Assembly: GCA_018058165.1 (NCBI GenBank) | Contig: JAGPCI010000002.1 | Span: forward strand, 1-37,349 | Reading direction: 5' to 3' | Origin: Bacteroidia bacterium | GTDB lineage: Bacteria; Bacteroidota; Bacteroidia; UKL13-3 | Length of the DNA: 37,349 bases | Shown here: positions 1 to 19,132 of the stretch, piece by piece | Layout of the letters: every line of letters starts with the position of its first letter | Numbering within the stretch: the stretch's first letter is position 1 | Notes under the pieces: model-generated | Seen by the model: the letters and a program-made list of their open reading frames with translations, nothing else | Databases searched by the model: none | What the model was told of the DNA's origin: nothing | Program-made: the position numbers and the translations under genes

Positions 1-865
1 TAGTTCCTTCCATAAAAATACCCGTAGTATTTGCTAAAAATCGGTTGTTAAAAATGTAACTATCCGATATTTCTTTTAGTAATAATCCATACGCAGCATC
101 GCCCCAATTATCCTCAAACCAATTGTTAATCATTTTAACCCCATTAGTAAACATTACGGCTACACCAGCTCCGTTGTTTTTAAATACATTACTTATGTAG
201 GTATCATTATGAGAAAACATAAAATGTAAGCCATACCTAATATTGTTACTTGAAATATTACGCCAAATAATTGACCCGGTAACAAACTCTAAATAAATGC
301 CATCACGGTGGCCATTAATTTTATTCCCTATAATTTGTATGCTGTCACTTTTCCAGCAATGTATGCCATTACCTATTTCTTGTTCTTCTTTTCCGTAGGC
401 ATTAATGGTATTGTTTTTTATAATACAATGTTTGCCGTATTGTATGTAAATGCTAAAAAAATTGTCGTCTAATATATTGTTTGATATGGTTACAAACCAT
501 GCATCGTAAACTTTAACTCCACAGGGATCTTCTAGTGTTCCGTATCCAGAGTTTTTAATCGTAAATCCATCTAAAACAACAAAGTTTGCTTTGATAGATA
601 TTACCTCTTGTTTTTTTTGGCCATCAATTACTGGGTTGTTTTTACCAAGTATGGTTAGGCTTTTATCAATAAGGATATTGCCTTCTTGATAAATTCCACC
701 ATCAACTATAATTGTATCGTTATCTAATGATAATTTAAGTGCTTCTTTAATTGTTTTTAAGGCAAATTTTGGACCAACGGTTATAGTTTTTGCCGAGGCT
801 GATGTGCAAGTTATTGTTGCTAATAAAAGTAATATGATGAAGTTTGTTCTATTAATTATTGCCAT
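1..865 (-). CDS. nosD: Nitrous-oxide reductase maturation protein NosD (periplasmic beta-helix protein). N-terminal part only; the gene runs off the left edge
   Basis: Absent from the ORF track because it has no stop in the window. Manual reverse-complement translation from the ATG at 865-863 stays open to position 1. It gives MAIINRTNFIILLLLATITCTSASAKTITVGPKF..VDGGIYQEGNILIDKSLTILGKNNPVIDG..NGIHCWKSD..HRDGIYLEFV..IRYGLHFMFSHND..NNGAGVAVMFTNG. These are a signal peptide followed by repeated parallel beta-helix motifs typical of NosD. It overlaps the upstream nosL stop by 10 nt. Confidence 0.85.
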   Translation of the reverse strand, partial: MAIINRTNFIILLLLATITCTSASAKTITVGPKFALKTIKEALKLSLDNDTIIVDGGIYQEGNILIDKSLTILGKNNPVIDGQKKQEVISIKANFVVLDGFTIKNSGYGTLEDPCGVKVYDAWFVTISNNILDDNFFSIYIQYGKHCIIKNNTINAYGKEEQEIGNGIHCWKSDSIQIIGNKINGHRDGIYLEFVTGSIIWRNISSNNIRYGLHFMFSHNDTYISNVFKNNGAGVAVMFTNGVKMINNWFEDNWGDAAYGLLLKEISDSYIFNNRFLANTTGIFMEGT

Positions 866-1857
866 GTTATTGCTTTAGCCTCGTATTGTTGCAGGTAAGG
901 CTCAGCATCTGCAATTGTTGCAAATGCGGCTATTCCGCCACCCATAGGGCTTTTAATATTTTCGCTATTTATAAGTGTGGCTTTATTTATTAATAAAAAT
1001 GATGATGGATTTAAAAAATCGGCCACATAAAAATTAGTTGTTACTGCTTGTGGTTGTGCTGTTTTATAATTGGTCATGCATTTTACATCATCAAATTTAT
1101 AAACTCGTCCTTTAGCTGTTACTAATTGGCTGGCAAACTTAGCATCAGTTATGGTCATCTTACAAAAATCACATTGGTCAACATTAATTTTAATTACAGC
1201 AGGTCCTACCTCTGCACACGAAGTTAAAAACATAATCGAAAGGCCAACAATAGTTAGTGCTTTATTTTTTTTAAATTTGCCCAATATGTTGTGCTCTACT
1301 GCAAAACAAAAAAGCATTACCACACCTGCGCCAATAAACATCCAACCGCCAAAGGCAGGTATAGAATAAGCGCCAAAATTTAATAATTGTTTAAATCCAA
1401 TTAATGGTGGTTGATATGCCATACCGGGAACAATTATAGCTGCATTTGGGTCTAAGTTATGGCCATAATTATAATTCCAACGGTAAAAATCTATCATTGA
1501 TATTATACCAAAAAGTATAAAACTAACGAGTAAAAAAGTAAGTATTTTTTTATTATTGAGTAGGGCAGTAGCAAGGCTAAAAAGTGCAAAAAAGGCTATT
1601 AGGTATCTTAATATAGAAAACTCTATAAAATTTTCTGAGTGCAAGGTTTGCATGCCAATGTAATGGTTTAATCCATTAATAATATCAACATCTCCACCAA
1701 GACCATTTGCGTGAATAGTTAGAGCTAATCCTTCTGGATATTGCGGTGCATCTAATTCAATGCGCCATATAGCAACAAACATTGAAGTAACTAACATAGC
1801 AGCGGCTATAACTAACAGCAATCTTGATGACGGTTTAAGTTTGTTATCTGAGTTCAT
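856..1857 (-). CDS. nosL: NosL-family copper chaperone domain fused in frame to an N-terminal four-helix membrane domain (NosB-like?)
   Basis: The C-terminal ~135 aa carry a lipobox (LSIMFLTSC) and NosL-like motifs (VDQCDFCKMTI, KGRVYKFDDVKC, SPMGGGIAAF). The N-terminal ~190 aa have four hydrophobic helices. It lies between nosZ and nosD. Confidence 0.75.
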   Translation of the reverse strand: MNSDNKLKPSSRLLLVIAAAMLVTSMFVAIWRIELDAPQYPEGLALTIHANGLGGDVDIINGLNHYIGMQTLHSENFIEFSILRYLIAFFALFSLATALLNNKKILTFLLVSFILFGIISMIDFYRWNYNYGHNLDPNAAIIVPGMAYQPPLIGFKQLLNFGAYSIPAFGGWMFIGAGVVMLFCFAVEHNILGKFKKNKALTIVGLSIMFLTSCAEVGPAVIKINVDQCDFCKMTITDAKFASQLVTAKGRVYKFDDVKCMTNYKTAQPQAVTTNFYVADFLNPSSFLLINKATLINSENIKSPMGGGIAAFATIADAEPYLQQYEAKAITWQ

Positions 1858-1926: not shown

Positions 1927-3918
1927 TTATTTTTTTGCTTCTGGGGCAGTAGGTGTTGTAGGGTTGCCAAGTAACCAACTAAGTGGTGTGTTACTGTTTG
2001 CTGGCGATACGCGAACATATCCTGACATTTCTTGATGTAATGCACTACAAAAATCTGTACAATACATTGGGAACACGCCTGCTTTTTCTGGAACCCATTT
2101 TAAAGTAGCAGTTTCTCCTGGCATAACTAATAATTCACCATTTCTTGCTCCTTTTACCGCAAAACCATGCGGTACATCCCAATCTTGCTCTAGGTTAGTT
2201 ACGTGGAAGTAAACTTCATCACCAACTTTTACACCTTCAATATTATCTGGGGCTAAGTGAGAGCGAATTGCTGTCATATACACATGAACTTTTTTGCCTT
2301 CGCGAACTACTTTAGTTTCATGTTCGCCTTTTGCAACATAAGGGTGATTGTTTTCAGCAATCTTAAATATTTTAACAGAGTTTGGTGCAATTAATTCTGC
2401 TGGTGCAGCTTGTGCGTAATGCGGCTCACCAATAGTAGGGAAATCTAATATTAACTGCATTTTATCACCGCTGATATCATATAACTGTGCGCTTTGAGAT
2501 AACTCTGGTCCAGTTGGTAAATATCTATCTTTGGTAATTTTGTTGTATGCTATTAAGTATTGTCCAAATGGTTTTTTACTATCGCCACCCGGAACGCATA
2601 AGTGACCTACAGAATAAAATGTTGGTACACGGTCTAATACTTTTAGGTCTTTAATATTCCATTTAACAACTTCTGATGAAACGAAGAATGAAGTGTAAGC
2701 GTTACCTTTACCATCAAACTCAGTATGCAATGGGCCTAAGCCTGGTTTTTTAACTTCACCATATAAAGCAGCTTCGTATTTTATTACATCAATACCATCA
2801 TATTTACCATCAAATTGTTTGTCGGCAATGGCTTTTTGAATTTTATCGAAGCTAAATACAGGAATTAAAGCAGCTAATTTACCACTACCTACAATGTACC
2901 CACCAGTTGGGTCTACGTCACAACCGTGTGGAGATTTAGGGCATGGAATCATGTAACATAAGTCAGAAAACTCTTTTGCATCAAGTATAAGTACTTCGGT
3001 TCTCAATTCTGATTTTGCAGAATGTGTTTTTTCGTCCCATACATTATGAATGTATTTAGCAGCAGTTTTTTTACCTCTACCTGCTTTAATATATTCTTCA
3101 GCTTTTTTCCAATTTACAGCCATAATAAAATCTTTGTCGTTTTTAGAAGCGTTAACCTCTAACAAAGTATTTGCTTGCTCTGTATTGTAGCATGAAAAGA
3201 AGAACCAACCATGTGATTTGCCTTTACCAGCGTGGCTTAAATCAAAGTTTACGCCAGGGCATTGAATTTGAAATGCAATATCCATTTCACCTTCTTTACC
3301 TACACTAATAAAGCTTAAATGGCCTTTAAAGTTTTGTTTGTAAGTGTTAATTGGCACATCACCATTCGAGTTGTCGGCTGGTACGCTAAAACGTGTTCCT
3401 GCAACTACATACTCAGTATTTTCTGTAATAAATGGTGACGAGTGGTTACCTGCACTATTTGGTATTTCAATAATCTCGGCTGTACGGAAAGTTTTTAAAT
3501 CAATACGTGCAACACGTGGTGTGTTATTGGCATTACCAAATACCCAACGGCCATCAATTTCGCCATTAGTTTGCGACATTTCTGTGTGATGCAAATCATC
3601 CCAAGGCACCATACCATGTGATGTGTTTAACATTGGTTTAGTTTCTTCGCTGTATCCCCAGCCTTTTTCTGGATCAACTGCAAATACTGGGATAACACGT
3701 AGTAAACGACCACTCGGCAATCCGTAAACGCTTAATTGGCCGCTAAATCCACCACTTACAAAGTTGTAGAATTTGTCGAGTTTACCAGGTGCGATGTATG
3801 TTTTTTGTGCAGCATCACCTGTAACCGCGTTGCTTGTATTTTTTGGTTTACAAGAAACGATAGCAGCAACGGCCATACTAGCAATTGCGCCTTTAATTAA
3901 TATACTATTCCTTTTCAT
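1927..3918 (-). CDS. nosZ: Sec-dependent (clade II) nitrous-oxide reductase NosZ
   Basis: 663 aa. The CuA motif is C-terminal (CTDFCSALHQEM). CuZ-type histidine motifs are present (DDLHHTE, KSPHGCDV, GPLHTEF, GEPHYA). There is no twin-arginine motif; the N-terminus is a Sec/lipoprotein-type signal (AAIVSC). Confidence 0.95.
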   Translation of the reverse strand: MKRNSILIKGAIASMAVAAIVSCKPKNTSNAVTGDAAQKTYIAPGKLDKFYNFVSGGFSGQLSVYGLPSGRLLRVIPVFAVDPEKGWGYSEETKPMLNTSHGMVPWDDLHHTEMSQTNGEIDGRWVFGNANNTPRVARIDLKTFRTAEIIEIPNSAGNHSSPFITENTEYVVAGTRFSVPADNSNGDVPINTYKQNFKGHLSFISVGKEGEMDIAFQIQCPGVNFDLSHAGKGKSHGWFFFSCYNTEQANTLLEVNASKNDKDFIMAVNWKKAEEYIKAGRGKKTAAKYIHNVWDEKTHSAKSELRTEVLILDAKEFSDLCYMIPCPKSPHGCDVDPTGGYIVGSGKLAALIPVFSFDKIQKAIADKQFDGKYDGIDVIKYEAALYGEVKKPGLGPLHTEFDGKGNAYTSFFVSSEVVKWNIKDLKVLDRVPTFYSVGHLCVPGGDSKKPFGQYLIAYNKITKDRYLPTGPELSQSAQLYDISGDKMQLILDFPTIGEPHYAQAAPAELIAPNSVKIFKIAENNHPYVAKGEHETKVVREGKKVHVYMTAIRSHLAPDNIEGVKVGDEVYFHVTNLEQDWDVPHGFAVKGARNGELLVMPGETATLKWVPEKAGVFPMYCTDFCSALHQEMSGYVRVSPANSNTPLSWLLGNPTTPTAPEAKK

Positions 3919-3932
3919 ATTAGGATGGTTTG

Positions 3933-4436
3933 TTATTTTACTCCGTCATTTTTACGCATAAATTCTAAAATTTTGCGCGCATCATCATCTGTTAATCCTT
4001 GGTTTGGCATTCTCACTAAACAAATTTCTAATTGAGCTTGAACTTCTGGGTCTTTGTCAATCATTGGATCTGGATTAGTTATAAAATTCATAATCCACTC
4101 TGGTGCTCTTCTTGAGGTAACACCGTGCCATCCTGGTCCTACTAATCTTTCGTCAGTCATTTTGTGACATGATGAGCATTTTACGCCCGCAATGCTTTCA
4201 CCTTCAGTTGCCATTGCAGCATCTACAGTTGGGCTAATGGTTAAATTGTCTGCTGAGAATTTTCCTTCACCACGATTTGGATCGTAATCTGGATTGCCTG
4301 TTGTTGTTTCAGTGCTTTCGGTTGTAGTTGTTGTTGCTTCTGATGAAGTAGCAGTGGTTTCGTTTGAGCTTCCTCCGCATGCATAAAGCGCTACAGAGAT
4401 GGCCATAATTGCAATTACTTTTTTCATAAAAATCAT
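3933..4436 (-). CDS. Lipoprotein monohaem c-type cytochrome, probable electron donor to NosZ
   Basis: Lipobox VALYAC, a Thr/Ser/Glu-rich tether, a single CSSCH and a distal Met (VRMPNQG). The stop is 14 nt upstream of the nosZ start. The start may instead be the MKK at 4427. Confidence 0.8.
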   Translation of the reverse strand: MIFMKKVIAIMAISVALYACGGSSNETTATSSEATTTTTESTETTTGNPDYDPNRGEGKFSADNLTISPTVDAAMATEGESIAGVKCSSCHKMTDERLVGPGWHGVTSRRAPEWIMNFITNPDPMIDKDPEVQAQLEICLVRMPNQGLTDDDARKILEFMRKNDGVK

Positions 4437-4587
4437 GTAAATTTTGTTCTACGAAAGTGGTCATGTTTGCATTTTTATTTTATGCGTTCAGTCATAAAAC
4501 TAAGATGATTAAAAGCAGCAACTTATAGTAATTGGTAAGTAAGATTTTGGTTGAATTGGTGCATGTTATTTTATCGCTAATTAAATA

Positions 4588-5649
4588 TTAGTTAGATAAA
4601 CTTTCATTATCTGTAAGTGTTTTTAAAAAGGCTACTAATGCCTGCTTTTGTTCAGTAGTTAGGTTTAATTTATAGGTTGGCGCTTTTTTATTAATTATTG
4701 GGTCGATTGTGGCTGATGGCTTAATTCCTGAGTTATAAAATTCTACCACTTCCTCTAAACTACTGTATCTTCCATCATGCATGTATGGTGCTGTTAGGCT
4801 TGCATTGCGTAAAGTTGGTGTAGCAAATCTACCAATATCATTTGCATTATTTGTTACCAACCATCGGCCATTATCAAACCCACTAAAAGTACTGTTTAAG
4901 CCATTATTATGAAACTCTGTATCGCTAAATAAAGGTGGTTGATGGCAATGAAAACAATCTCCTATTTCGCTAAAAAAAATGTTATAGCCCTCTTGTTCTA
5001 GAGTAGTAAACATTGTTTCACCATTCATAACTTTATCATATTTTGAATTGCTACTAATTATAGTACGCATGTATTGCGAAATGGCATAGGATATTTTTGT
5101 TTGCATAGTTTTAAAATCGTAATCGTAAATGTTTTTAATTAAAAATGCCTTGTAAAATGCATCTTTATAGTAACTGCTATTTGCTAAGTTTTGATACATA
5201 TCTGCCGAGTCTGTATTAAAAAATTCTGGACCAAAATCTGCTATGCATAAAGTATCTAAAATGGTTACTGAACCCGTCCAATTGTAATGTCGTTTAAATG
5301 CTAAATTAATATGTGGCGGCACACTTATTCTATATCCATTCTCGCCAATATGCATGGGTACCGAAAATGATTTATCTCGATGGTGGCATGATGAGCAACT
5401 TCTACCGTTGCTTGATAACATTGGTTCGTTATATAACCGCTCGCCAAGCGCTACCCCTTCTTCTGTTAACGGGTTATCTGAATTTACTTTGTATAATGGA
5501 AATCCTTTAGGCACTTTTAGTATGTAAGGAGTAGGTTTATAATCTACAATTGGTGTGGCGGGCTCGTTTTCTTTACAAGCACTTATGCTTAATACAATAA
5601 TTAAAAATGCTATTAATATTTTACTCAACATAAAACACATCCTTTCCAT
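4588..5649 (-). CDS. Di-haem cytochrome c peroxidase family protein (CCP/MauG/MbnH-like), lipoprotein
   Basis: Two CXXCH motifs (CSSCH, CFHCH) about 145 aa apart and a CCP-type motif TPTLRNASLTAPYMHDG. The lipobox is LSISAC. The likely true start is MLSKIL at 5631. Confidence 0.8.
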   Translation of the reverse strand: MERMCFMLSKILIAFLIIVLSISACKENEPATPIVDYKPTPYILKVPKGFPLYKVNSDNPLTEEGVALGERLYNEPMLSSNGRSCSSCHHRDKSFSVPMHIGENGYRISVPPHINLAFKRHYNWTGSVTILDTLCIADFGPEFFNTDSADMYQNLANSSYYKDAFYKAFLIKNIYDYDFKTMQTKISYAISQYMRTIISSNSKYDKVMNGETMFTTLEQEGYNIFFSEIGDCFHCHQPPLFSDTEFHNNGLNSTFSGFDNGRWLVTNNANDIGRFATPTLRNASLTAPYMHDGRYSSLEEVVEFYNSGIKPSATIDPIINKKAPTYKLNLTTEQKQALVAFLKTLTDNESLSN

Positions 5650-6364
5650 TATTGGTAATTTTCATCATGGTAGTTGAATCGCCCATGGTATAATTTCCAT
5701 CAGTAAATAAGTTATAGGTATATGGGTTTTTGTACCATTCATTAATATTCATGGTAAGGCCAATTGTAGAAGTTTGATTTTCGTTAACTGTTGTACTAGT
5801 GGTGATAGGATTGTGGTTGATTAAGTAAGCATTTAAACCTGTATGCACTGCATAACCTTTTCTATCATTTGATGGTGTTAAAAACTGTCCTTCTAGCTTT
5901 AAAAAATGGTAACCGCCACCCATCGCTTCAGGCCATATCATTCCAATATTTTCATCTGTATTGGGTATCATGCCATGTTGGTTATTTGCTGCATCAATAC
6001 CAATATTAAACGATAGGCTTTCGTAAGTGCCTAATGGAACATTATCTAGTTTAATTTGTATAGGTTGTGTTCTAGCGTCTATATAAACTATTTGGTTTGA
6101 TATATATTTTACTACACCATTAGTGGTGAGCTTAAAATTAGATAAATAATAATTTACCCTTGTAACACTAAAGTTATTGTTGGCTAAGTTGGTATATTTT
6201 AAGGTATCAAAAAGTAATAATTGCCCGTCAACTTTATGGGTTAGGTTTAGGTTAATGGTGCCTGTGGGCGTAATAACAATTGGTTTAATATCTTCTGTAT
6301 CCTTACATGCTCCTAATAAAAATGAAAGCAGTATGATTAAAATGGAGGTTTGTTTGTTTAGCAT
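5621..6364 (-). CDS. MbnP-like periplasmic lipoprotein (putative copper-binding partner of the di-haem peroxidase)
   Basis: 247 aa with lipobox FLLGAC and all-beta-type composition. It overlaps the di-haem peroxidase gene immediately downstream, which is the arrangement typical of MbnP-MbnH pairs. The family call is from recall, not from a search. Confidence 0.5.
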   Translation of the reverse strand: MLNKQTSILIILLSFLLGACKDTEDIKPIVITPTGTINLNLTHKVDGQLLLFDTLKYTNLANNNFSVTRVNYYLSNFKLTTNGVVKYISNQIVYIDARTQPIQIKLDNVPLGTYESLSFNIGIDAANNQHGMIPNTDENIGMIWPEAMGGGYHFLKLEGQFLTPSNDRKGYAVHTGLNAYLINHNPITTSTTVNENQTSTIGLTMNINEWYKNPYTYNLFTDGNYTMGDSTTMMKITNNGKDVFYVE

Positions 6365-6368
6365 ATAC

Positions 6369-6376
6369 CAAAATTA
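6369..6376 (-). promoter_or_regulatory. Bacteroidota -7 promoter element (TAATTTTG) for mbnP
   Basis: The reverse complement of CAAAATTA matches the consensus TAnnTTTG exactly. It ends 4 nt before the mbnP ATG (6364), which implies a leaderless or near-leaderless mRNA. Confidence 0.45.
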
Positions 6377-6398
6377 CCACCGTTTTTTTTGATAAAGG

Positions 6399-6412
6399 TT
6401 GATGGCTGTCAA
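6399..6412. promoter_or_regulatory. FNR/CRP-type box TTGAT-GGCT-GTCAA
   Basis: 9 of 10 matches to TTGAT-N4-ATCAA. It lies in the divergent region between mbnP (-) and a 55-aa ORF (+). It sits 26 nt from the TTTG/GTTG of a -7-like element on each side. Confidence 0.55.
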
Positions 6413-6434
6413 CGTTTATTATTTGTAAGCAAAT

Positions 6435-6442
6435 TAATGTTG
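6435..6442 (+). promoter_or_regulatory. -7-like element TAATGTTG for the 55-aa ORF
   Basis: One mismatch to TAnnTTTG. It shows the same 26-nt spacing from the FNR-type box as the two minus-strand promoters. Confidence 0.3.
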
Positions 6443-6471
6443 CAGCACATTAACCAATTAATCAATATACA

Positions 6472-6639
6472 ATGAAGTTGTTTTTGAATATTTTATTGCA
6501 AGGCGGACCACCAGACCCTATAGATTGGGGAGATCCAGAGGATATTCCAATATCTGATCAAGCTTATGTTTTATTTGTACTTGCAATAATATATGGATCG
6601 TATAAAATTTATCAATCAATAAAAAAAGCACCTAAGTAG
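6472..6639 (+). CDS. Hypothetical 55-aa small membrane protein
   Basis: Below the ORF-track cut-off. Manual translation gives MKLFLNILLQGGPPDPIDWGDPEDIPISDQAYVLFVLAIIYGSYKIYQSIKKAPK: an acidic/Pro-rich segment, one TM helix and a basic tail. It ends inside a strong terminator and has promoter-like elements upstream. Confidence 0.35.
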   Translation: MKLFLNILLQGGPPDPIDWGDPEDIPISDQAYVLFVLAIIYGSYKIYQSIKKAPK

Positions 6640-6649
6640 GTGCTTTTTT
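6621..6649. terminator. Bidirectional rho-independent terminator
   Basis: AAAAAAAGCACCT-aagt-AGGTGCTTTTTT: a 7-bp GC-containing stem with an A-run and a T-run on either side. It lies between the convergent 55-aa ORF (+) and the lipoprotein gene ending at 6675 (-). Confidence 0.75.
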
Positions 6650-6674
6650 ATGTTTAAATAAAAGTTAAGGTAGT

Positions 6675-7163
6675 TTATTCGAAGTATTGGTTAAACATTA
6701 CAAACGATGCTTGCAATGCGTTTACAATTTGTGACGCTTCTTCTTCGTTTTTAGCATTTCCTAAATCTTTTATTAATTGCATATATGGATGTAACCATAC
6801 GTGTAATTCTTCATGCGATTGACCTTTCATGGTGCAGCTTTTGGTTAGTAAGCCTACAGTTGAGTTTAACTCTTTAGCCAGTGCAGCATAATCTTTTTTA
6901 GGTGCATTTATGTAAGTGTCTACTAGGCCTTCGCTATTACGTACATACACCATCATCTCTTTATTCACTGCCCATTTTGCACCATTGTTTAAGTTAATCT
7001 CTAGCTTTTCTGTTGCTTCATGGCTCTCCTCATGTTCTGCTGTATTACTTACTTGTTCTTGATTAGAAGCAACATCGTTTGTTGGTGTTTTTGGCTGTTG
7101 GTTGCAACTAGTAGTAATTGCTAACCCGCCCGCCAAGGCAAAAAATAATTGTAGTTTCATCAT
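6675..7163 (-). CDS. Hypothetical lipoprotein with His/Glu-rich motifs
   Basis: Lipobox AITTSC, a low-complexity linker with EHEESHE, and a C-terminal helical part with QSHEELHVWLHPYM. I recognise no family. Confidence 0.6.
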   Translation of the reverse strand: MMKLQLFFALAGGLAITTSCNQQPKTPTNDVASNQEQVSNTAEHEESHEATEKLEINLNNGAKWAVNKEMMVYVRNSEGLVDTYINAPKKDYAALAKELNSTVGLLTKSCTMKGQSHEELHVWLHPYMQLIKDLGNAKNEEEASQIVNALQASFVMFNQYFE

Positions 7164-7613: not shown

Positions 7614-8793
7614 TTGTTTCCCTTCTGCGTTTAACTTCTTTAGTTATTAATTCCAGCTCACGATTCATTTGGCCATTTACAGTTTTGTTTTCGTTTGCCC
7701 TGCGAATTAAATATGGAATTGCTTTTTCTATTTCGCCATATGGTAAATATTTCGACACTTCAAAACCAGCATGTGCAAGGTTAAAAGTTAGGTTATCACT
7801 CATGCCTAATAATTGCGAGAAACTAATTTTTTCTTTAGCATCTGCAATGTTTAATCTATTTACTTCTGCTATTGCATGTGTTATACTTTCTTCGTTGTGC
7901 GAAGCAATACAAAGATGGGTAGTTTGCATATTTGCTAAACAAATATCAATGGCCATATCAAAAGATTTATCTGTATCGGCTTTGGTTTTAAACACAGGAG
8001 AAGGCACACCAGCTTCTTCAGCCCTTTCGTTTTCTTTCTCGTGGTAAGCCCCTCTAACTATTTTTACACCAGCATAAAAATTGTTCTTCTTACTTAAGGC
8101 AATTAAATTATTCAGATACACTATTCTATCTGTTAAATACATTTGTAATGTGTTAAAAATAACTGCCTTTTTTGTATTGTATTTTTGCATCATTTGTTCC
8201 ACTATGTAATCGTAAATATCTTGTGTGCAACGCTCTTCTGCATCAAAATAAATGGTTATATTATGTGCGTGGGCTTCTGCGCATATTTCATCAATGGTAG
8301 TTAATAGTTGGTTAAAGCGTACCTTGTTGTCACTGCTTTTTTCATTTAACAAAAAATTGCTTCGTTTTAAAAAATCGTAGTCTTCTAATCCAGTAATTTT
8401 TATGCTAATATAGTGGCCAGGATATTTTATAGCTAATGCATTAATATTTTGCTTAATGCGTATTGCATTTTGTTTGTATCCAGCTTGGTTATTTTCACTC
8501 TCAGATACATAATCTAATACTGATTTTACCTTGTATTGCATTAAATTACCAATGGTTATAAATGCTTGATGTAAGTTTTCGCCTGCACAAAACACTTTAA
8601 ATACGGTTTGTTTAATTAAAAACTTTCCGGGTAGTTTATATTTTAAAATAAGCGCTGCACCGCCAGATAAAAACTTCACCAAAAATGGATAGTTAAATAA
8701 CTTAAATACAAAATGTGTTTTTTGTAATTGAGTAGTGGTTTTATACTTAAAAGCAAGTTCTGTTTGGTTAAAGTTAGGTATATGCGTACTCAT
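7606..8793 (-). CDS. Proline dehydrogenase family protein (monofunctional PutA-like)
   Basis: 395 aa with the motifs KIVRGAYHEKE, LGMSD and AIPYLIRRANENKTV, typical of the PRODH beta8-alpha8 barrel. Confidence 0.75.
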   Translation of the reverse strand: MSTHIPNFNQTELAFKYKTTTQLQKTHFVFKLFNYPFLVKFLSGGAALILKYKLPGKFLIKQTVFKVFCAGENLHQAFITIGNLMQYKVKSVLDYVSESENNQAGYKQNAIRIKQNINALAIKYPGHYISIKITGLEDYDFLKRSNFLLNEKSSDNKVRFNQLLTTIDEICAEAHAHNITIYFDAEERCTQDIYDYIVEQMMQKYNTKKAVIFNTLQMYLTDRIVYLNNLIALSKKNNFYAGVKIVRGAYHEKENERAEEAGVPSPVFKTKADTDKSFDMAIDICLANMQTTHLCIASHNEESITHAIAEVNRLNIADAKEKISFSQLLGMSDNLTFNLAHAGFEVSKYLPYGEIEKAIPYLIRRANENKTVNGQMNRELELITKEVKRRRETNA

Positions 8794-10163
8794 AATATGT
8801 TTGATTTGGTGTGTGATAGGTTAACTGTTGAGTTTGATTTTTTTAGATAACAAGCTGCGTAGTTATAAAGCAATGTTGCAGCTATAATTAGCAGAGCAAC
8901 TACTAATACAAAACCTGCAATAATAAATGTGGCGAAATAGGGTGTTAAATCCTGCATCATATCGTGGTAGTTACTTTGTATTACCGAGTTTTGCCAAATA
9001 CCTTTTTTTATGCCTGCAATATTTAGCGCAAGCCAAAATACCAATAAACTTATTTGGGTTGTATAAAACAACATATTTAGCCATTTATTTGCTTTATTGT
9101 AATTGGTGCAATTGTTACCTAAAAACATAAAACAAGCTGCTAATAAAATCATGCTATTAATTCCAATTGTTGTACCCATTGCATGGGCAACTGTTACATG
9201 CGTGCCATGTGTGTAAATATTTAATACCGGAATTGACATAAGTACAGCTAAACCCATATTGGCAAACACCCAAATATCCGAAGCCATTATAAATCGATAG
9301 GGGAAAAAGTGGTAGTTTTTTTTCATATCTGATACACTTTGTTTCCATTGAAAAATTATGCGTGCAAAAAATATCCATTCGGTCATGCTTACTATATATC
9401 CAATATATCTTATGTAACTATCTGTAGGAAGAGTATAGACATGATGACCCCAATTAAACATTAAATTAAACAGGCCTAAAAAGTACATACCAAAGGCAAT
9501 TTTACTAAATCCAACTTTGTTGTTGCCAGTAATTTTATCCATTAAAAAAAATGCTGTGCCATATATTAATTGATTCCACGAACCCACCAAGGAGCCATTT
9601 ACTTTCCACTGTATGGTCATGTCTAATACAAAATTATCACGGAAATAAGGGAATACCCACAGGTAGTTTTCAATAAATGTAAACATAAAAAACAACCCGC
9701 CAGTAAGCCACATCCAAACATAAACGGGCCATGTTTTTATTGATTTAACTGTTTTAATAAAGTTTATTAAATAAAGTATCCAAGCGGCTGCAATTGGTAA
9801 TGCCCAAATAGGATTAAATTCCCAGTATTCTCTTCCCCCAAAATCGTGGTGAAAATAACTATTTGCAATGCCTACTATTGCGATTAGCCATAAAGTAAGT
9901 TGTGCGGCTGCAAGTTTGTTTGATAATTTATTAGGGTTGAGTAAGTGCAATGCACTCATAACCGAACCATTTGCTGCAATAATTATCCATAATGTAACAA
10001 ACGAAACATGCAAGGGGCGTAATGCAGTAAAGCCAATTGAATTTTTTAAAAAATCGGGTTTTACGTAAACTATCGAAGCCAATAAGCCAAACACAATTCC
10101 AACTAACAACAAGCAAAGGGCCAATGCCAAAAATAATTTTCCTATGTTTGGTTTCGTGCTCAT
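8790..10163 (-). CDS. Haem-copper oxidase superfamily catalytic subunit, divergent cbb3/NOR-like
   Basis: 457 aa with about 12 TM helices. It has the CcoN/NorB-like motifs LRPLH (helix II) and FNWGHHVY (helix VII HH). The helix VI His and the helix X HxH are not present (see findings). Confidence 0.8.
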   Translation of the reverse strand: MSTKPNIGKLFLALALCLLLVGIVFGLLASIVYVKPDFLKNSIGFTALRPLHVSFVTLWIIIAANGSVMSALHLLNPNKLSNKLAAAQLTLWLIAIVGIANSYFHHDFGGREYWEFNPIWALPIAAAWILYLINFIKTVKSIKTWPVYVWMWLTGGLFFMFTFIENYLWVFPYFRDNFVLDMTIQWKVNGSLVGSWNQLIYGTAFFLMDKITGNNKVGFSKIAFGMYFLGLFNLMFNWGHHVYTLPTDSYIRYIGYIVSMTEWIFFARIIFQWKQSVSDMKKNYHFFPYRFIMASDIWVFANMGLAVLMSIPVLNIYTHGTHVTVAHAMGTTIGINSMILLAACFMFLGNNCTNYNKANKWLNMLFYTTQISLLVFWLALNIAGIKKGIWQNSVIQSNYHDMMQDLTPYFATFIIAGFVLVVALLIIAATLLYNYAACYLKKSNSTVNLSHTKSNIL

Positions 10164-10567
10164 GGTTGTTCTATCATTCCGTTATTAAACTTTTTAAACT
10201 TTCTGTAATCTGCTGTTCCGCTTTGGTTAGTTTGAATTAAAAATTCCAAAAGTGCAGTTTGTTCTTCCTCCGATAAATTAAAAGCAGGCATTGCTTTTAC
10301 GCCACTATTAATTATTCCGCTAATTACCTTATCGCCTTTAAGGCTATATATATTGGTTAAATCAGGGCCTAAATATCCACCTAAACCATAAAGTTGGTGG
10401 CAACTTTGGCAATTGTATTTTTGCCACACCAATCGTCCTTTTACGGCAAGTTCTGTATTAAAAGTTTGTGGTAGTTTTAAAGTGGGCTTATTAGTATAAA
10501 TACTAAATGAGTAAACCAAAAAGCTTAAACATAAGGCCAAAAATATATGTAGCGGTTTTATCTCCAT
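10160..10567 (-). CDS. Membrane-anchored monohaem cytochrome c (NorC/CcoO-like partner subunit)
   Basis: N-terminal TM anchor, CQSCH followed by LYGLGGYLGPDLT, and a distal Met in KAMPAF. Its stop overlaps the oxidase-like start by 4 nt. Confidence 0.8.
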   Translation of the reverse strand: MEIKPLHIFLALCLSFLVYSFSIYTNKPTLKLPQTFNTELAVKGRLVWQKYNCQSCHQLYGLGGYLGPDLTNIYSLKGDKVISGIINSGVKAMPAFNLSEEEQTALLEFLIQTNQSGTADYRKFKKFNNGMIEQP

Positions 10568-13052: not shown

Positions 13053-14864
13053 TTATGTTGCTTTTACAGTAATAGGAGTTAATTGCATGTTGTGTAAATC
13101 TTCTTCAAGTTGATTTAGTTCAATACGCATACCTTTAAATAATTCTTCAGCCTGATTGCCCATGTTGTCTATTAAGCCACGGTAATAATCTATTCCTGAA
13201 AGTAAATTTTCTTTAAACTTTTCTAAGTAAGTTTCTTTACGCTGTACTATATTTAACGTTATCTTTTTTTGTTCGTTTGTTAAATAGTTCATGTAAAGTT
13301 TTAATTCGTTTATAAACAAATTAGGGCGATGCACTTTATTTAAAATGTTAATTCTGCCATAAATATGATCTACCATTTGCTGTAAAGTAAATGTGCCCGA
13401 AAAGAAAGCTAAGTTTGGCCCAGGGCAAATTGTAACTGCACCAAAACTATGCTTAGGTGTTATACCGTTTACCATTAATGCCGGTTCTGTTAAACCTTCA
13501 CATAAGCAATCTTTTTCTTTAACAATAGTTGCCTTTGCTTCATATTCTTCGGGGCTGGCACAAGTTTCTTTTAATTGTTTTAATTTAAAATATTGGTATT
13601 TTACAGATGCGGTGCAAATGGGTTCTTTGGTAAACTCCGTATCAAATTGTAAGTACTTTTTTAGGCATGGGCTACCAGATTTTCCTTTTTCTATCCTGCT
13701 TTTACGTAAGGTTTCTGCACTACTTTTTCTAAAATTATTAAAGGGTACTCCAAGCGGAGAAGCGTTACTTAAATAATAATCTTCGGGCACAGCGCTAGCT
13801 AAATCATTTAGTGTTTTGGTATCTACATTAGTAACTTCTGGTACCAATAAAAACGGGCTACCCCAGCCACCGCTATTTAAGCGATAGTATTTTAATAAGA
13901 AATTATTTTCGTGTACATTACCTATGCCACCTTGTGCAGTAATTTTTAAATTGGGGTTTGTGGCTAACTTGTTCTTGCCCGAAGCGGTAAGTGCATCATT
14001 ACACATATCGTATAAAGTTTGATATAACTCTGCACGTTTGTTTTTAAACTCTTCTAAAATTGGTCCCATTAATATGCCATCTGTTGCAAATGCATGTCCA
14101 CCACAATTTAATCCAGACTCAACCCTAAACTCCGAAACCCACAATCCTTTTTTTGCCAAAAATTTTCCTTGAATTAAAGCCGACCTGTAATCGCTTACTT
14201 TTAATACAATTTTCTTTTTTGATAGCCCATTTACTTCAGGATAAAAATCCTTAAAGTGTTCGCAATAGCCATAAATTTTTGGATTGAACCCTGCTGAGAA
14301 CACAACCGAAGAACTCAAATTGCTTTGCGCAAAACCGCGTAATGCTGATGATGCATCAGATTGTTCGTGTGGTAAAGGATTTCCTGCCTTGTCAAAAATG
14401 GGCTTGTCTACTTTGGTCATAATATTAACTTCAATAGCCCCAATACTCCAACTTTCTTTTAAGTGTTTTTCTGCTTTATCTCGTTCGTCAGCCGTTATAT
14501 TTGGTAAAGTATCATACAGCTGCTTTAGGTCATTATCGTTAGGCAGCATACTAAAATATTGCTTCACAATTGGGCTCGAAAATGGTTGTTGGCGCAAATC
14601 TTCAACTTGTTTGTTGATAATTTCATCCATTGTATTTAAGTAGGTTGAAATTCGCAAAGCGCGATAATCATCATCTGAAGTTGTTATTTCTGAATAAGGC
14701 AAACTATACAAAGTGCAATAATGCTTGCGCATTTGTTCTAGCAATTCATCTTCAACAATAGAAATGGCTGAACTTATTCCAAATTTTGCTACCTTAATGG
14801 GTGTATCTACAGTAAAGCCAATACCCATAACTGGTATATGAAATTTGTGAGCTTGTGCTGTCAT
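13053..14864 (-). CDS. Conserved hypothetical protein, possibly an FMN-type TIM-barrel oxidoreductase fold, with a Cys-rich and coiled-coil C-terminus
   Basis: A 603-aa uninterrupted ORF. The motifs VESGLNCGGHAF and ITAQGGIG resemble nitronate-monooxygenase/IMPDH-like barrels. There are 3-nt gaps to rfbD upstream and nadA downstream. Confidence 0.6.
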   Translation of the reverse strand: MTAQAHKFHIPVMGIGFTVDTPIKVAKFGISSAISIVEDELLEQMRKHYCTLYSLPYSEITTSDDDYRALRISTYLNTMDEIINKQVEDLRQQPFSSPIVKQYFSMLPNDNDLKQLYDTLPNITADERDKAEKHLKESWSIGAIEVNIMTKVDKPIFDKAGNPLPHEQSDASSALRGFAQSNLSSSVVFSAGFNPKIYGYCEHFKDFYPEVNGLSKKKIVLKVSDYRSALIQGKFLAKKGLWVSEFRVESGLNCGGHAFATDGILMGPILEEFKNKRAELYQTLYDMCNDALTASGKNKLATNPNLKITAQGGIGNVHENNFLLKYYRLNSGGWGSPFLLVPEVTNVDTKTLNDLASAVPEDYYLSNASPLGVPFNNFRKSSAETLRKSRIEKGKSGSPCLKKYLQFDTEFTKEPICTASVKYQYFKLKQLKETCASPEEYEAKATIVKEKDCLCEGLTEPALMVNGITPKHSFGAVTICPGPNLAFFSGTFTLQQMVDHIYGRINILNKVHRPNLFINELKLYMNYLTNEQKKITLNIVQRKETYLEKFKENLLSGIDYYRGLIDNMGNQAEELFKGMRIELNQLEEDLHNMQLTPITVKAT

Positions 14865-16728: not shown

Positions 16729-17290
16729 AAGTAAAGTGGTTTGAATTTGGGTTTGCCAACCATTCATTTAACGATTGTGCTTTTTTATCTTTTTCTGATA
16801 ATGTTGGATTTTCATCAGGCCATTTAATGCCAATTTCAGGGTCGTTAAATGCAATACCTGATTCTGCTAAATTGCTGTATAATCCTGTACATTTATATTG
16901 AATTTCGGCAAACTCACTCATGGTATAAAATCCTCTTGCAAAACCAGCTGGTGCCCAAACCATTTTCTGATTTTCAGCCGAAACAATTTCACCATACCAT
17001 TGACCTAATGTTGGCGAATTTTTTCTAATATCAACAGCTACTAAAAATGCTTCACCATAAGTTACACGCATTAACTTACCCATTGGCGGTTCCCATTGAA
17101 AATGTAATCCACGTAAAACGCCTTTTGATGAACGGGAGTGATTATCTTGAACAAATTCTAGCTCTAACCCTAATTCTTTAAATGCATCTTTACGGTATGT
17201 TTCCATAAAAAAGCCTCTTTCGTCTTTAAATATTTCCGGTTGTAGCACCATTAGTCCATTCAAGGCTTGATGTATCAGGTTTATTTTCAT
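16718..17290 (-). CDS. rfbC: dTDP-4-dehydrorhamnose 3,5-epimerase
   Basis: 190 aa with the motifs FKDERGFFMETY, GVLRGLHFQ and GFARGFYT. Confidence 0.9.
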   Translation of the reverse strand: MKINLIHQALNGLMVLQPEIFKDERGFFMETYRKDAFKELGLELEFVQDNHSRSSKGVLRGLHFQWEPPMGKLMRVTYGEAFLVAVDIRKNSPTLGQWYGEIVSAENQKMVWAPAGFARGFYTMSEFAEIQYKCTGLYSNLAESGIAFNDPEIGIKWPDENPTLSEKDKKAQSLNEWLANPNSNHFTYGK

Positions 17291-18329
17291 GTTGTTTGGT
17301 TGATTTAATTTGTGAGAAGGTTTTTATACCCTTTAAAAAATAGCTATATACTATGCTACCACTATACATGTATGGCAATATGCGTTTGTCGCTAACCTTA
17401 CGTTTTTGTTGTACTTCTTTACGTTTTTTAATAATTAAGCCAGTGTTTAATATCAACCAAATATGTGCAGTTAAAATAGCACGAATGGTAGTAAAATTAA
17501 ACTTAATCATGGCTTGCAAAATCACCACATAGTCTAAAAATATATGAATAGGTACAAAACGAATTACTTGTAACAATGCGTAATTTTTAAGCATGATGTA
17601 AATGGAATTACGGTGGTTCCAATATGTTTTTTTGAAACTTGCGGTAGTAATTGTACCGCCACCTATATGCCTAATAACTGATTTTGGTTGAACATATAAA
17701 CTGTATCCAGCTAAGCGTAATCTCCAGCATAAATCAATCTCATCCATATGATGCACAATTGTTTCATCTAACATGCCGCTTTCTTCTAATGCAGATTTGC
17801 GTAAAAACATTGCTGCACCACTAGTCCAAAATACTGGTGCAATATCTTCATATTGACCTTTATCTTCTTCAACCGTATCAAATATTCTTCCGCGTAAAAA
17901 AGGGTATCCAAATACATCAATCATTCCACCACTTCCGCCTGCATACTCAAAATGGGTAGGTTTGTTGTAGTCTAATAATTTGGGTTGAATAGCACCTATT
18001 CGCATATCCGATTCTGCAAGATTAACCATACTTTCAATCCAGTTTTTGGCTACTGTTACATCGTTGTTTAAGCAAATAATGTACTCGCCTGGGCAGGCTT
18101 TAAAAGCAAGGTTATAGGCTGCACAATACCCATTGTTTAAAGGGTTTTGAATGATTTTTACTTCGGGATATTTTTCAGTTACGTAGGCTACATCATCTTG
18201 GGTTGATGCATTATCAAGTAAGTAAACTTGTTTTTTGGCGTAAGAAGATTGTAAAACAGAGGTGATACATTCGTCTAAAAAGCGTTTGCCATTATGATTT
18301 AAAATTACAATATCTACTTCTGGTAACAT
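17226..18329 (-). CDS. Family 2 glycosyltransferase (rhamnosyltransferase-like) with C-terminal TM helices
   Basis: Motifs VDIVILNHNG, LDNAST, LNNDV and HMDEIDLCWR. The ORF-track start at 18350 is a TTG; the first ATG is at 18329. Confidence 0.8.
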   Translation of the reverse strand: MLPEVDIVILNHNGKRFLDECITSVLQSSYAKKQVYLLDNASTQDDVAYVTEKYPEVKIIQNPLNNGYCAAYNLAFKACPGEYIICLNNDVTVAKNWIESMVNLAESDMRIGAIQPKLLDYNKPTHFEYAGGSGGMIDVFGYPFLRGRIFDTVEEDKGQYEDIAPVFWTSGAAMFLRKSALEESGMLDETIVHHMDEIDLCWRLRLAGYSLYVQPKSVIRHIGGGTITTASFKKTYWNHRNSIYIMLKNYALLQVIRFVPIHIFLDYVVILQAMIKFNFTTIRAILTAHIWLILNTGLIIKKRKEVQQKRKVSDKRILPYMYSGSIVYSYFLKGIKTFSQIKSTKQHENKPDTSSLEWTNGATTGNI

Positions 18330-18377
18330 GCCTTGTTTATTAGGTAACAAAGCACGTATGTTTATATGGTCTATTTA

Positions 18378-18391
18378 TTGACCTGCGTCAA
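18378..18391 (-). promoter_or_regulatory. FNR/CRP-type box TTGAC-CTGC-GTCAA (perfect palindrome)
   Basis: It lies in the 74-95 nt gap between the Crp/Fnr gene and the GT2 gene. It is 26 nt from a TTTG (CAAA at 18348-18351 on plus), the same spacing as at the mbnP promoter. Confidence 0.55.
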
Positions 18392-18424: not shown

Positions 18425-19132
18425 TTAATCCTCGAGTTTCGCAATTGTAAATAATCGCTCGTAATCAACAATTTTTATGTATTTTTTGAAGAGTAAAATT
18501 ACTTTTTCATCGTCCCATTCGCGTAAAACCCTAACTGCAGTTTCTGTAGCCATTCCTGCAATACTGGCCATATCTTCTCGGGTTAATACAATGTTTATAA
18601 AGTTTTCGTTGTTTTTGCCAAACGATTTTTCAAGTAATAATAATGTTTCTGCTAATCGTGCTCGTGTGTCTTTTTGAATAAAGCTAACCGATTTATTCTC
18701 GGCCAAGCTTAAATCTTCGGCAAACCTCGACATAATTTCCATAGTAAACTTTATGTTCGATTTTATTAAATCAAATATGCGCTCTTTAGGAATAAAACAT
18801 ACAATCGAGTCTTCAATTGCAACACCAGAGGCAATGTAGTGTCCATCACCCAAAAGCCCCCTGTAGCCAATTAATTCACCATCTTTAGCTAGTCGTAAAA
18901 TTTGGGTACTTCCATCGTGCAATGTTTTGTAAAGTTTAATTTTGCCTTGGTGCACACAATGTAAACCCTTTGCTAAATCACCTTCATGAAAAATTAATTG
19001 ATTCTTTTTAACCCGGTGCGTTAGCTTATAGTCGTTTAAATCACTTAACTCATCTTTTTTTAAAGTGCAAAATGATGACAGGGCCATGTTTTGGCAGGTA
19101 GTGCAATCTATATTTTTTACAGGTTTTTTCAA
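18425..19132 (-). CDS. Crp/Fnr family transcriptional regulator with an N-terminal cysteine motif
   Basis: cNMP-binding-type beta-roll (IFHEGDLAKGLHCVHQGKIKLYK) and a C-terminal HTH with an FNR-like recognition helix (ATETAVRVLRE). N-terminal CTTCQNMALSSFC. The start codon is TTG at 19132-19130. Confidence 0.85.
   Translation of the reverse strand: MKKPVKNIDCTTCQNMALSSFCTLKKDELSDLNDYKLTHRVKKNQLIFHEGDLAKGLHCVHQGKIKLYKTLHDGSTQILRLAKDGELIGYRGLLGDGHYIASGVAIEDSIVCFIPKERIFDLIKSNIKFTMEIMSRFAEDLSLAENKSVSFIQKDTRARLAETLLLLEKSFGKNNENFINIVLTREDMASIAGMATETAVRVLREWDDEKVILLFKKYIKIVDYERLFTIAKLED

Follow-up and report, generated by a model that had tools for sequence, protein, structure and literature searches.

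A divergent MbnP/MbnH-like gene pair lies beside, and outside, the nosZ transcription unit of a Bacteroidia bacterium

Introduction

Does a gene pair resembling mbnP and mbnH, when it lies directly upstream of a nitrous oxide (N2O) reductase cluster, belong to that cluster, or does it only share the neighbourhood? The question is raised by a stretch of 37,349 nucleotides (nt) from a Bacteroidia bacterium (contig JAGPCI010000002.1), here called the window, whose source organism occurs in wastewater and sludge metagenomes. An earlier note on this DNA, made from the sequence alone, had pointed to overlapping minus-strand genes for a lipoprotein and for a di-haem protein (motifs CSSCH and CFHCH), 151 nt upstream of cytochrome c-nosZ-nosL-nosD on the same strand, and had read them as a copper module co-expressed with NosZ. 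Both genes are present and overlapping where that note placed them, and the distance and the strand were confirmed; the transcriptional part of the reading was not borne out.

Copper is limiting for N2O reduction, and among the major N2O sinks of wastewater and soil are the Bacteroidota with clade II NosZ. If a pair that handles copper were tied to the denitrification regulon, it would add a new point of control and would place kynurenine-type copper sites outside the methanotrophs as well. The pair itself is already known in public annotation, where PGAP labels such pairs 'MbnP family protein' and 'cytochrome c peroxidase'. Our literature search found no paper that names MbnP together with nosZ, so the link between the pair and nos, loose as it is, appears to be undescribed. 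It is the simple picture of this link that our analysis corrects: the pair is outside the nos transcript, is not nos-specific, carries its own FNR-type box and sits in a mosaic neighbourhood.

Results

Transcription of the pair and of the nos genes

The RNA evidence consists of contigs from ten metatranscriptomes that were placed on the region. At an identity of at least 95%, nosZ reached depths of 8-296 and the cytochrome c gene depths of 12-116, whereas the mbnH-like and mbnP-like genes reached only 0-6.5 at identity thresholds of 80-95%; the RNA of the pair is 10-100 times below that of nosZ and the cytochrome c gene. In two further runs (X31 and X34), nosZ was covered at its 5' end only and the depth over the cytochrome c gene stayed below 5. 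The RNA contigs end at 4370-4432, at about 4432 the depth drops to zero from values in the tens or hundreds, and no contig spanning 4433-4531 was found in the ten metatranscriptomes. From the side of the pair, a contig of low depth (X38, 4532-4682) reaches 56 nt beyond the mbnH-like stop. In a DNA control run, 4282-6700 was recovered in one contig at a flat depth of 11.3. We considered whether the low RNA signal of the pair was an artefact of the identity threshold, and this was ruled out by repeats at 80% and 90% together with the DNA control. Contigs assembled from communities do not prove absence; even so, a transcript shared by the pair and cytochrome c-nosZ at comparable abundance is excluded, and the data give no support to the co-transcription and co-expression with nosZ that had been proposed: the bridging contig is missing, the depths differ 10-100-fold and the DNA control is flat.

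The intergenic sequence (4437-4587) measures 151 nt from the mbnH-like stop to the first ATG of the cytochrome c gene (4436), or 160 nt if that gene begins at 4427. The first ATG is out of frame in the related loci L001, L002 and L016 and only the second is in frame in them, which makes 4427 probably the true start, giving MKKVIAIMA... Within this gap no terminator is predicted, as the earlier note had it, and the RNA folds no better than shuffled sequences (z = -0.95). The companion statement of the note, that no promoter could be recognised before the cytochrome c gene, did not hold. About 65 nt after the mbnH-like stop are poorly conserved, but the 85 nt or so ahead of the cytochrome c ATG are nearly invariant (L001, L002 and L016) and contain the dyad TATGAC-TGAA-CGCATA (Table 1), which appears as a perfect ATGAC-N4-GTCAT in the distant L041. 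The transcription start of cytochrome c-nosZ is predicted near 4447.

Within the pair, the overlap of the two genes measures 29 nt; counted from Met7 of the mbnH-like open reading frame (ORF) at 5631, which is a likelier start than the first Met, it is 11 nt. A strong bidirectional intrinsic terminator and a divergent ORF of 55 amino acids (aa; 6472-6639, plus strand) set the pair apart from the preceding genes. The product of this small ORF (MKLFLNILLQGGPPDPIDWGDPEDIPISDQAYVLFVLAIIYGSYKIYQSIKKAPK) is conserved and ends in a C-terminal hydrophobic helix; the ORF runs divergently from the mbnP-like gene, its 3' end lies in the shared terminator, and no family match was found for it. A 6-nt indel in L002 stays in frame, which supports it as coding.

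The MbnP-like protein

The product of the mbnP-like gene scores 105.2 bits on the Pfam model PF20243 (MbnP) over residues 34-213, against a gathering threshold of 27. On the NCBIfam equivalog TIGR04052 (MbnP_like_WxW) it reaches 16.2 bits, below the cut-off of 140, and 35-49 bits were obtained for its relatives in L003, L007 and L010-L013. An AlphaFold (AF2) model built on 56 homologues (pLDDT 95.8) was compared with known structures using Foldseek. The top six matches are all chains of MbnP 7L6G (E 1.5e-5 to 1.6e-4, probability 1.00, TM 0.47-0.54, identity 12-14%); 7L6G is the only match at E < 1e-3, and the next one stands at E 0.03. The link to 7L6G comes from this fold search and from a canonical MbnP encoded on a Methylocystis plasmid only: that protein, from a methanobactin operon (L095), aligns to 7L6G at E 9e-79 and carries the motif G/A-M-A-W-N-W. 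In a profile-profile alignment (hhalign, probability 64%), Met142 of the window protein falls on the Met of this motif and Trp144 on its first Trp.

The conserved core of the family reads N-M142-x-W144-P-x-x-M-G-G-G-Y152-H153-F-L-K-L-E-G, followed by G-Y-A-x-H174-x-G, and M142, W144, P145, Y152, H153, H174 and M227 are at least 90% conserved among 93 homologues. A second Trp is found in more distant Bacteroidota members (L010-L013), which have M-F-W-x-W. At E <= 1e-3 the family holds 1,919 cluster representatives (50% identity), and neither ORF of the pair is a chance ORF. These results support the protein as a distant member of the MbnP superfamily. The MbnP assignment made earlier stands at the level of the Pfam family and of the fold, and fails at the level of the NCBIfam equivalog (16 against 140 bits) and of its WxW motif. 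In the work of Manesis et al. 2021, the modified residue of MbnP is reportedly the first Trp of WxW, and the numbering of 7L6G fits this residue without proving it. If so, the window protein would have kept the Met-x-Trp...His core and lost the second Trp and the four-Cys motif.

The MbnH-like di-haem protein

The partner protein has two c-haem motifs, RSCSSCHH (C85SSCH) and GDCFHCHQ (C232FHCH), in a Pfam CCP_MauG domain. Its best model is TIGR04039 (MbnH), on which it scores 181.3 bits, yet below the cut-off of 362.85; the MauG model gives 102.6 bits. In a PDB search the best match was MbnH 6E1C (E 2e-41), ahead of the best peroxidase, 1IQC (E 7e-23). The inter-haem Trp is W124, and Tyr305 stands at the position of MauG Tyr294, aligned to the Tyr of 'ILFYN' in MauG and of 'DIYSE' in MbnH. 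In 67 partner sequences, conservation is at least 90% at W124, at Y305 and in both CxxCH motifs. The comparisons support placing the protein with MbnH/MauG and not with ordinary peroxidases, as had been expected; the narrower MbnH label is carried by the best-scoring model, by 6E1C as the closest structure and by the MauG-type Tyr, and is qualified by a score of 181 under a cut-off of 363.

Both products of the pair are Sec-exported lipoproteins. The residues after Cys+1 (CKDTED and CKENE) are suggestive at most of the surface-export signal of Bacteroidota.

Regulatory sequences

The mbnP-like gene is preceded by a CRP/FNR-type box, TTGACAGCCATCAA, and by a Bacteroidota-type -7 element, TAATTTTG, that lies 4 nt before its ATG and is kept as TAACTTTG in L002, L015 and L016. 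TAnnTTTG is the -7 promoter element of Bacteroidota, and its distance from the ATG implies an mRNA that is leaderless or nearly so. The centre of the box falls about 41.5 nt ahead of the start site predicted from the -7 element, a geometry that would match a class II FNR-type promoter on a leaderless mRNA. A scan with the sigma-70 consensus was uninformative in this phylum.

Across loci, the core TGAY-N4-RTCA occurs 20-130 nt upstream of the mbnP-like gene in 35/91 loci, as against 5% of other genes, and there are 0.9 copies of it per kb of intergenic sequence but 0.09 per kb of coding sequence. It is also found ahead of the RIC, FNR-like and nos cytochrome c genes and of some other neighbouring genes. 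Counted within the window alone the core is not significant (3 against 1.6 expected), so its significance comes from its position across loci only. Since the pair and the nos genes each have a box of their own and the boxes are of one type, the two units are probably under related factors, each with its own promoter. A CRP/FNR-family regulator is encoded in the window and is a candidate reader of these boxes. Just downstream of its gene, before a glycosyltransferase ORF (17226-18350), there is a further TGAC-N4-GTCA box at 18379-18390.

Gene neighbourhoods across lineages

Loci with an mbnP-like gene were collected from a genome scan (13 loci), one look-up and a search of metagenomes that used the family profile (80 loci). 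Before dereplication, the di-haem partner adjoins the mbnP-like gene in 75/94 loci. Dereplication at 70% identity left 43 lineages with at least 12 kb of flanking sequence, and neighbours were counted within 10 kb. An adjacent di-haem partner is present in 38/43 of these lineages, and the pair formed by a cytochrome c gene and a cNOR-related haem-copper-oxidase-like (HCO-like) gene in 13/43. A CRP/FNR regulator was counted in 12/43, a tyrosine phenol-lyase-like gene in 11/43, RIC/YtfE in 9/43, an Rrf2 regulator in 6/43 and any nos gene in 5/43. At least one of the HCO-like, nos, FNR, Rrf2 and RIC genes accompanies the pair in 22/43 lineages, far above chance for HCO, FNR, RIC, Rrf2 and nos genes alike, and in 21/43 the long loci have unrelated housekeeping neighbours only (e.g. 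RNR, PriA, NDH-2 and HPPD).

For nos within 10 kb, the rate expected by chance was estimated at about 0.2%. The order mbnP-mbnH-cytochrome c-nosZ recurs in L001, L002 and L016 and in the distant L041, whose MbnP is 35% identical, and in L035, L045 and L089 the nos genes are on the other side of the pair or on the other strand. L007 shares the upstream synteny of the window and has no nos genes downstream, and in the lower third of the family tree no member is linked to N-oxide genes. The nos-linked members are 26-38% identical to one another and their gene orders differ, which makes inherited synteny alone an unlikely cause. At the stage of the genome loci (2/13), nos adjacency had been taken as restricted to one lineage, a view that was dropped after the 80-locus metagenome scan. 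Adjacency to nos is real and recurs, but only a minority of lineages show it, within a wider and looser setting of N-oxide and low-oxygen genes; nos genes lie near such pairs far more often than chance would give, but most pairs lie away from nos.

Several other genes recur in these neighbourhoods. Rrf2 regulators, RIC/YtfE, globins and hemerythrins were seen in L014 (10898-18311), L021, L025, L028, L035, L050, L051, L055 and L073, and give the neighbourhood a nitrosative-stress flavour; L014 also carries a tryptophan 2,3-dioxygenase. A tyrosine phenol-lyase/tryptophanase-like gene (TIGR02618, 722 bits) lies directly upstream of the cytochrome c-HCO-like pair in at least seven loci (L007, at 734-2119, and likewise L017, L025, L035, L043, L050 and L060) and is not in the window. 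NadA/NadB, a PTPS/QueD-like gene and proline dehydrogenase recur as well, as does a protein of 603 aa (13053-14864, minus strand), which was found again in 10 loci, in five of them with an FNR-type box upstream, and which has no match in Pfam or NCBIfam. On a Cytophagales plasmid (L096, Chondrinema litorale NZ_CP111054.1, 8992-13327), two pairs of MbnP-family and di-haem genes stand in tandem in the opposite gene order and adjoin an ABC/RND efflux cluster.

Other features of the locus

The HCO-like gene in the window encodes a 457-aa protein whose nearest solved relatives are the cNOR subunits NorB 4XYD and 3O0R (E 2e-16). The cNOR FeB ligands His207 and Glu211 are replaced in it, and Met329 takes the place of the second axial His of the low-spin haem. 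Among 19 homologues there is no variation at H52, E165, H240, H241, H319, H322, H327 and M329. The protein may be a member of the cNOR-related 'N2O red' family, which was hypothesised from Flexibacter canadensis (PMC11214002). Four genes and a terminator separate its gene from the pair in the window.

Two more products deserve mention. In the NosL fusion, the polytopic membrane domain spans about 200 aa and has no NCBIfam family match, and the end of the fusion gene is overlapped by the start of nosD at 865. A lipoprotein of 162 aa (6675-7163, minus strand), limited to the closest relatives (the window, L002 and L016), has His- and Cys-rich stretches (HEESHE and CTMKGQSHEELHVWLHPYM) and no match in Pfam or NCBIfam; it could be a metal binder.

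Table 1. Features of the window that bear on the pair and its surroundings
Feature	Position	Strand	Remarks	Basis
nosD fragment	1-865	-	start of NosD	
Membrane-domain-NosL fusion gene	856..1857	-		ORF + Pfam
nosZ	1927..3918	-	Sec-dependent (clade II) N2O reductase	TIGR04246, 922 bits
Cytochrome c gene	3933..4436	-	lipoprotein, first of nos transcription unit	ORF, family models, RNA depth
Dyad TATGAC-TGAA-CGCATA	4481..4496	-	degenerate CRP/FNR-type box before cytochrome c-nosZ	
mbnH-like gene	4588..5649	-	353-aa di-haem lipoprotein, lipobox SISA/C	ORF call
mbnP-like gene	5621..6364	-	247-aa lipoprotein, lipobox LLGA/C20	ORF call
-7 element TAATTTTG	6369..6376	-	Bacteroidota type (TAnnTTTG), 4 nt before mbnP-like ATG	
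CRP/FNR-type box TTGACAGCCATCAA	6399..6412	-	centre 41 nt before mbnP-like ATG	
Bidirectional intrinsic terminator	6622..6649	.	12-bp stem flanked by A and T runs	
Cytochrome c (135 aa) + 457-aa cNOR-related HCO-like protein	8790..10567	-	commonest conserved neighbour across lineages	
CRP/FNR-family regulator gene	18425..19132	-	best model Fnr, 84 bits	

Discussion

On balance, we incline to the view that the pair stands as a unit of its own, with translational coupling between its genes, and represents a diverged form, found in Bacteroidota, of the MbnP/MbnH 'metallo-mystery pair' that would handle Cu(I) through a kynurenine-type site when oxygen is low or nitric oxide (NO) is present. A copper role, which the earlier note had also assigned to the pair, is something that we infer: the pair probably provides a copper site of the kynurenine type when oxygen is low or NO is present, and its link to NosZ is loose and not specific. 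In the mechanism we propose, low oxygen or NO would cause a regulator of the CRP/FNR family to turn the pair on. The MbnH-like enzyme would then, using peroxide and a high-valent di-haem state, convert Trp144 of the MbnP-like protein, the putative counterpart of the first WxW Trp in canonical MbnP, to kynurenine. Together with Met142 and His174, and perhaps with His153 and Met148, this residue would make up a Cu(I) site, and the holo-protein would bind or relay envelope copper for the cuproenzymes that are made under low oxygen or NO. NosZ would be one possible client among several and not a dedicated one. In this view, what brings the pair next to nos is no operon but a loosely assembled set of denitrification and NO-stress genes that recurs across lineages.

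A number of observations weigh against this proposal. The similarity to the characterised MbnP is remote (12-14% identity, TM about 0.5, hhalign 64%), and PDB sequence searches with the window protein, with the 56-sequence profile and with a profile of the WxW-type Bacteroidota proteins all missed 7L6G. The second Trp of WxW has no counterpart in the window protein (M-I-W144-P-E-A-M), and all four Cys of the canonical four-Cys motif are missing from it; its only Cys is the lipobox Cys20, where the canonical sequence has six. The equivalence of His174 follows a local pattern, xVHxG, with no alignment statistics behind it. Moreover, expression of the pair is low even in samples in which that of nosZ is high, which would be unexpected if the same low-oxygen signal sufficed for both, and the RNA contigs, assembled from mixed communities, are better evidence of presence than of absence. 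Finally, ordinary cytochrome c peroxidases, too, are typically under FNR-type control.

The view from which the locus first drew attention, that the pair is a copper-acquisition module on one transcript with cytochrome c-nosZ-nosL-nosD whose dedicated task is to load NosZ with its 12 Cu, draws on the common strand and the 151-nt gap without a terminator hairpin, on the gene order that recurs in L001, L002, L016 and L041, on the excess of nos genes within 10 kb (5/43 against about 0.2%) and on the 56 nt by which contig X38 runs past the mbnH-like stop. We nevertheless hold it to be improbable. The RNA depth falls to zero at about 4432 and the pair lies 10-100 times lower; a conserved operator and promoter block stands directly before the cytochrome c gene; 38/43 lineages have no nos gene nearby and L035, L045 and L089 have theirs on the other side or strand; and a NosL is already part of the nos cluster. 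The HCO-like enzyme is a competing client, to which the pair might, for example, deliver an active-site metal, rather than to NosZ. It is encoded by the most frequent conserved neighbour (13/43 lineages against 5 for nos), often directly upstream and on the same strand (L017, L025, L030, L031, L035, L044, L050 and L055), and its metal site is unusual, with two His kept and the cNOR residues His207 and Glu211 replaced. That the pair serves this enzyme still seems rather unlikely to us, given the four genes and the terminator between them in the window, the FNR-type box that the mbnP-like gene has of its own even where the two are adjacent, and the 30/43 lineages without an HCO-like gene nearby.

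Two further alternatives would do away with a copper function or with the meaning of the position. The di-haem protein might be mainly a periplasmic peroxidase that acts against oxidative stress at oxic-anoxic transitions, with the MbnP-like protein as a non-metal anchor or electron donor. Its CCP_MauG domain, the PGAP name 'cytochrome c peroxidase' of such genes, the nearby RIC, Rrf2 and globin stress genes and the FNR-type control that is typical of bacterial peroxidases are all compatible with this, but the axial ligand position has the Tyr of MauG and MbnH and not the Met of peroxidases, and no peroxidase is as closely related to the protein as MbnH. A protein substrate is favoured instead by the strict pairing, with overlapping genes, to a partner of MbnP fold in which Met-x-Trp and His are kept, and we give this alternative little chance. 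It would take equally little for us to set aside a housekeeping envelope module whose place beside nos reflects the synteny of one lineage and has no functional meaning. Such a module would fit the 21/43 long loci with unrelated housekeeping neighbours only, the lower third of the family tree and the separate transcription; it is scarcely likely in view of the 26-38% identity and the differing gene orders of the linked members, the enrichment of HCO, FNR, RIC, Rrf2 and nos genes far above chance, and the box type common to the RIC gene, the nos cytochrome c gene and other neighbours.

The proposal of a self-contained kynurenine-type copper unit can be carried further, into a speculation that we consider rather doubtful. 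The large Bacteroidota subfamily without the second Trp might be a kynurenine-based metal-delivery module of the low-oxygen/NO regulon that matures N-oxide reductases, its clients being clade II NosZ, the HCO-like enzyme (possibly a member of the membrane N2O reductase family that has been hypothesised) or the two together. If this were true, copper for N2O reduction in abundant wastewater bacteria would depend on a cofactor that is made post-translationally.

Comparison with known systems

The pair resembles several known systems in part. With NosL, Sco/SenC and PCuAC-type chaperones it shares the envelope location, a putative Met/His-type Cu(I) site and genes encoded near nosZ. Their folds are unrelated to that of the MbnP-like protein, however, and the pair is outside the nos transcript of a cluster that already encodes NosL; furthermore, unlike the known copper suppliers of NosZ, it is missing from most of the nos-free and nos-containing contexts sampled. 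MauG, which acts on pre-methylamine dehydrogenase and oxidises Trp residues of this partner protein, is similar in its His/Tyr haem and inter-haem Trp, features across which the window protein aligns with it. The di-haem protein of the window differs from it in its score (103 bits against 181 for MbnH), in the lack of mau genes and in its putative substrate, which has the MbnP fold.

The methanotroph proteins MopE/CorA, with their di-haem partners (MCA2590/CorB), offer another parallel in that an envelope protein is encoded beside a di-haem peroxidase-like gene. They are surface or envelope copper proteins whose site includes a Trp-derived kynurenine (PMC3621798; PMC11951088). Their genes are repressed by copper, and their fold is a different one; we found no sequence or fold match to MopE/CorA for the window protein.

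The closest comparison is with MbnP/MbnH of Methylosinus trichosporium OB3b (7L6G and 6E1C) and with the pair of Methylocystis iwaonis (L095). Pairs of this kind are reportedly also found in copper-homeostasis contexts, according to Kenney 2019 and Manesis 2021. They are conserved far beyond the methanobactin producers (PMC3621798), and in the characterised MbnP the copper site consists of Kyn174, which comes from the WxW motif and requires MbnH, together with His, Met and water (PMC11951088). Unlike these proteins, the MbnP-like protein of the window has 247 aa as against about 300-350, reads W-P-E in place of W-N-W and lacks the four-Cys motif, and both window proteins are lipoproteins that score below the NCBIfam cut-offs. 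The surroundings also differ: genes for methanobactin, MbnT, sigma and anti-sigma factors are missing from the vicinity, an FNR-type box is present, and the context is one of N-oxide genes rather than of TonB transporters or copper genes. What the window shares with OB3b and Methylocystis is the arrangement as two overlapping genes, an MbnP fold adjoining a MauG-like di-haem enzyme with a Tyr ligand, and a conserved Met-x-Trp with a downstream His at the putative positions of the copper/kynurenine site.

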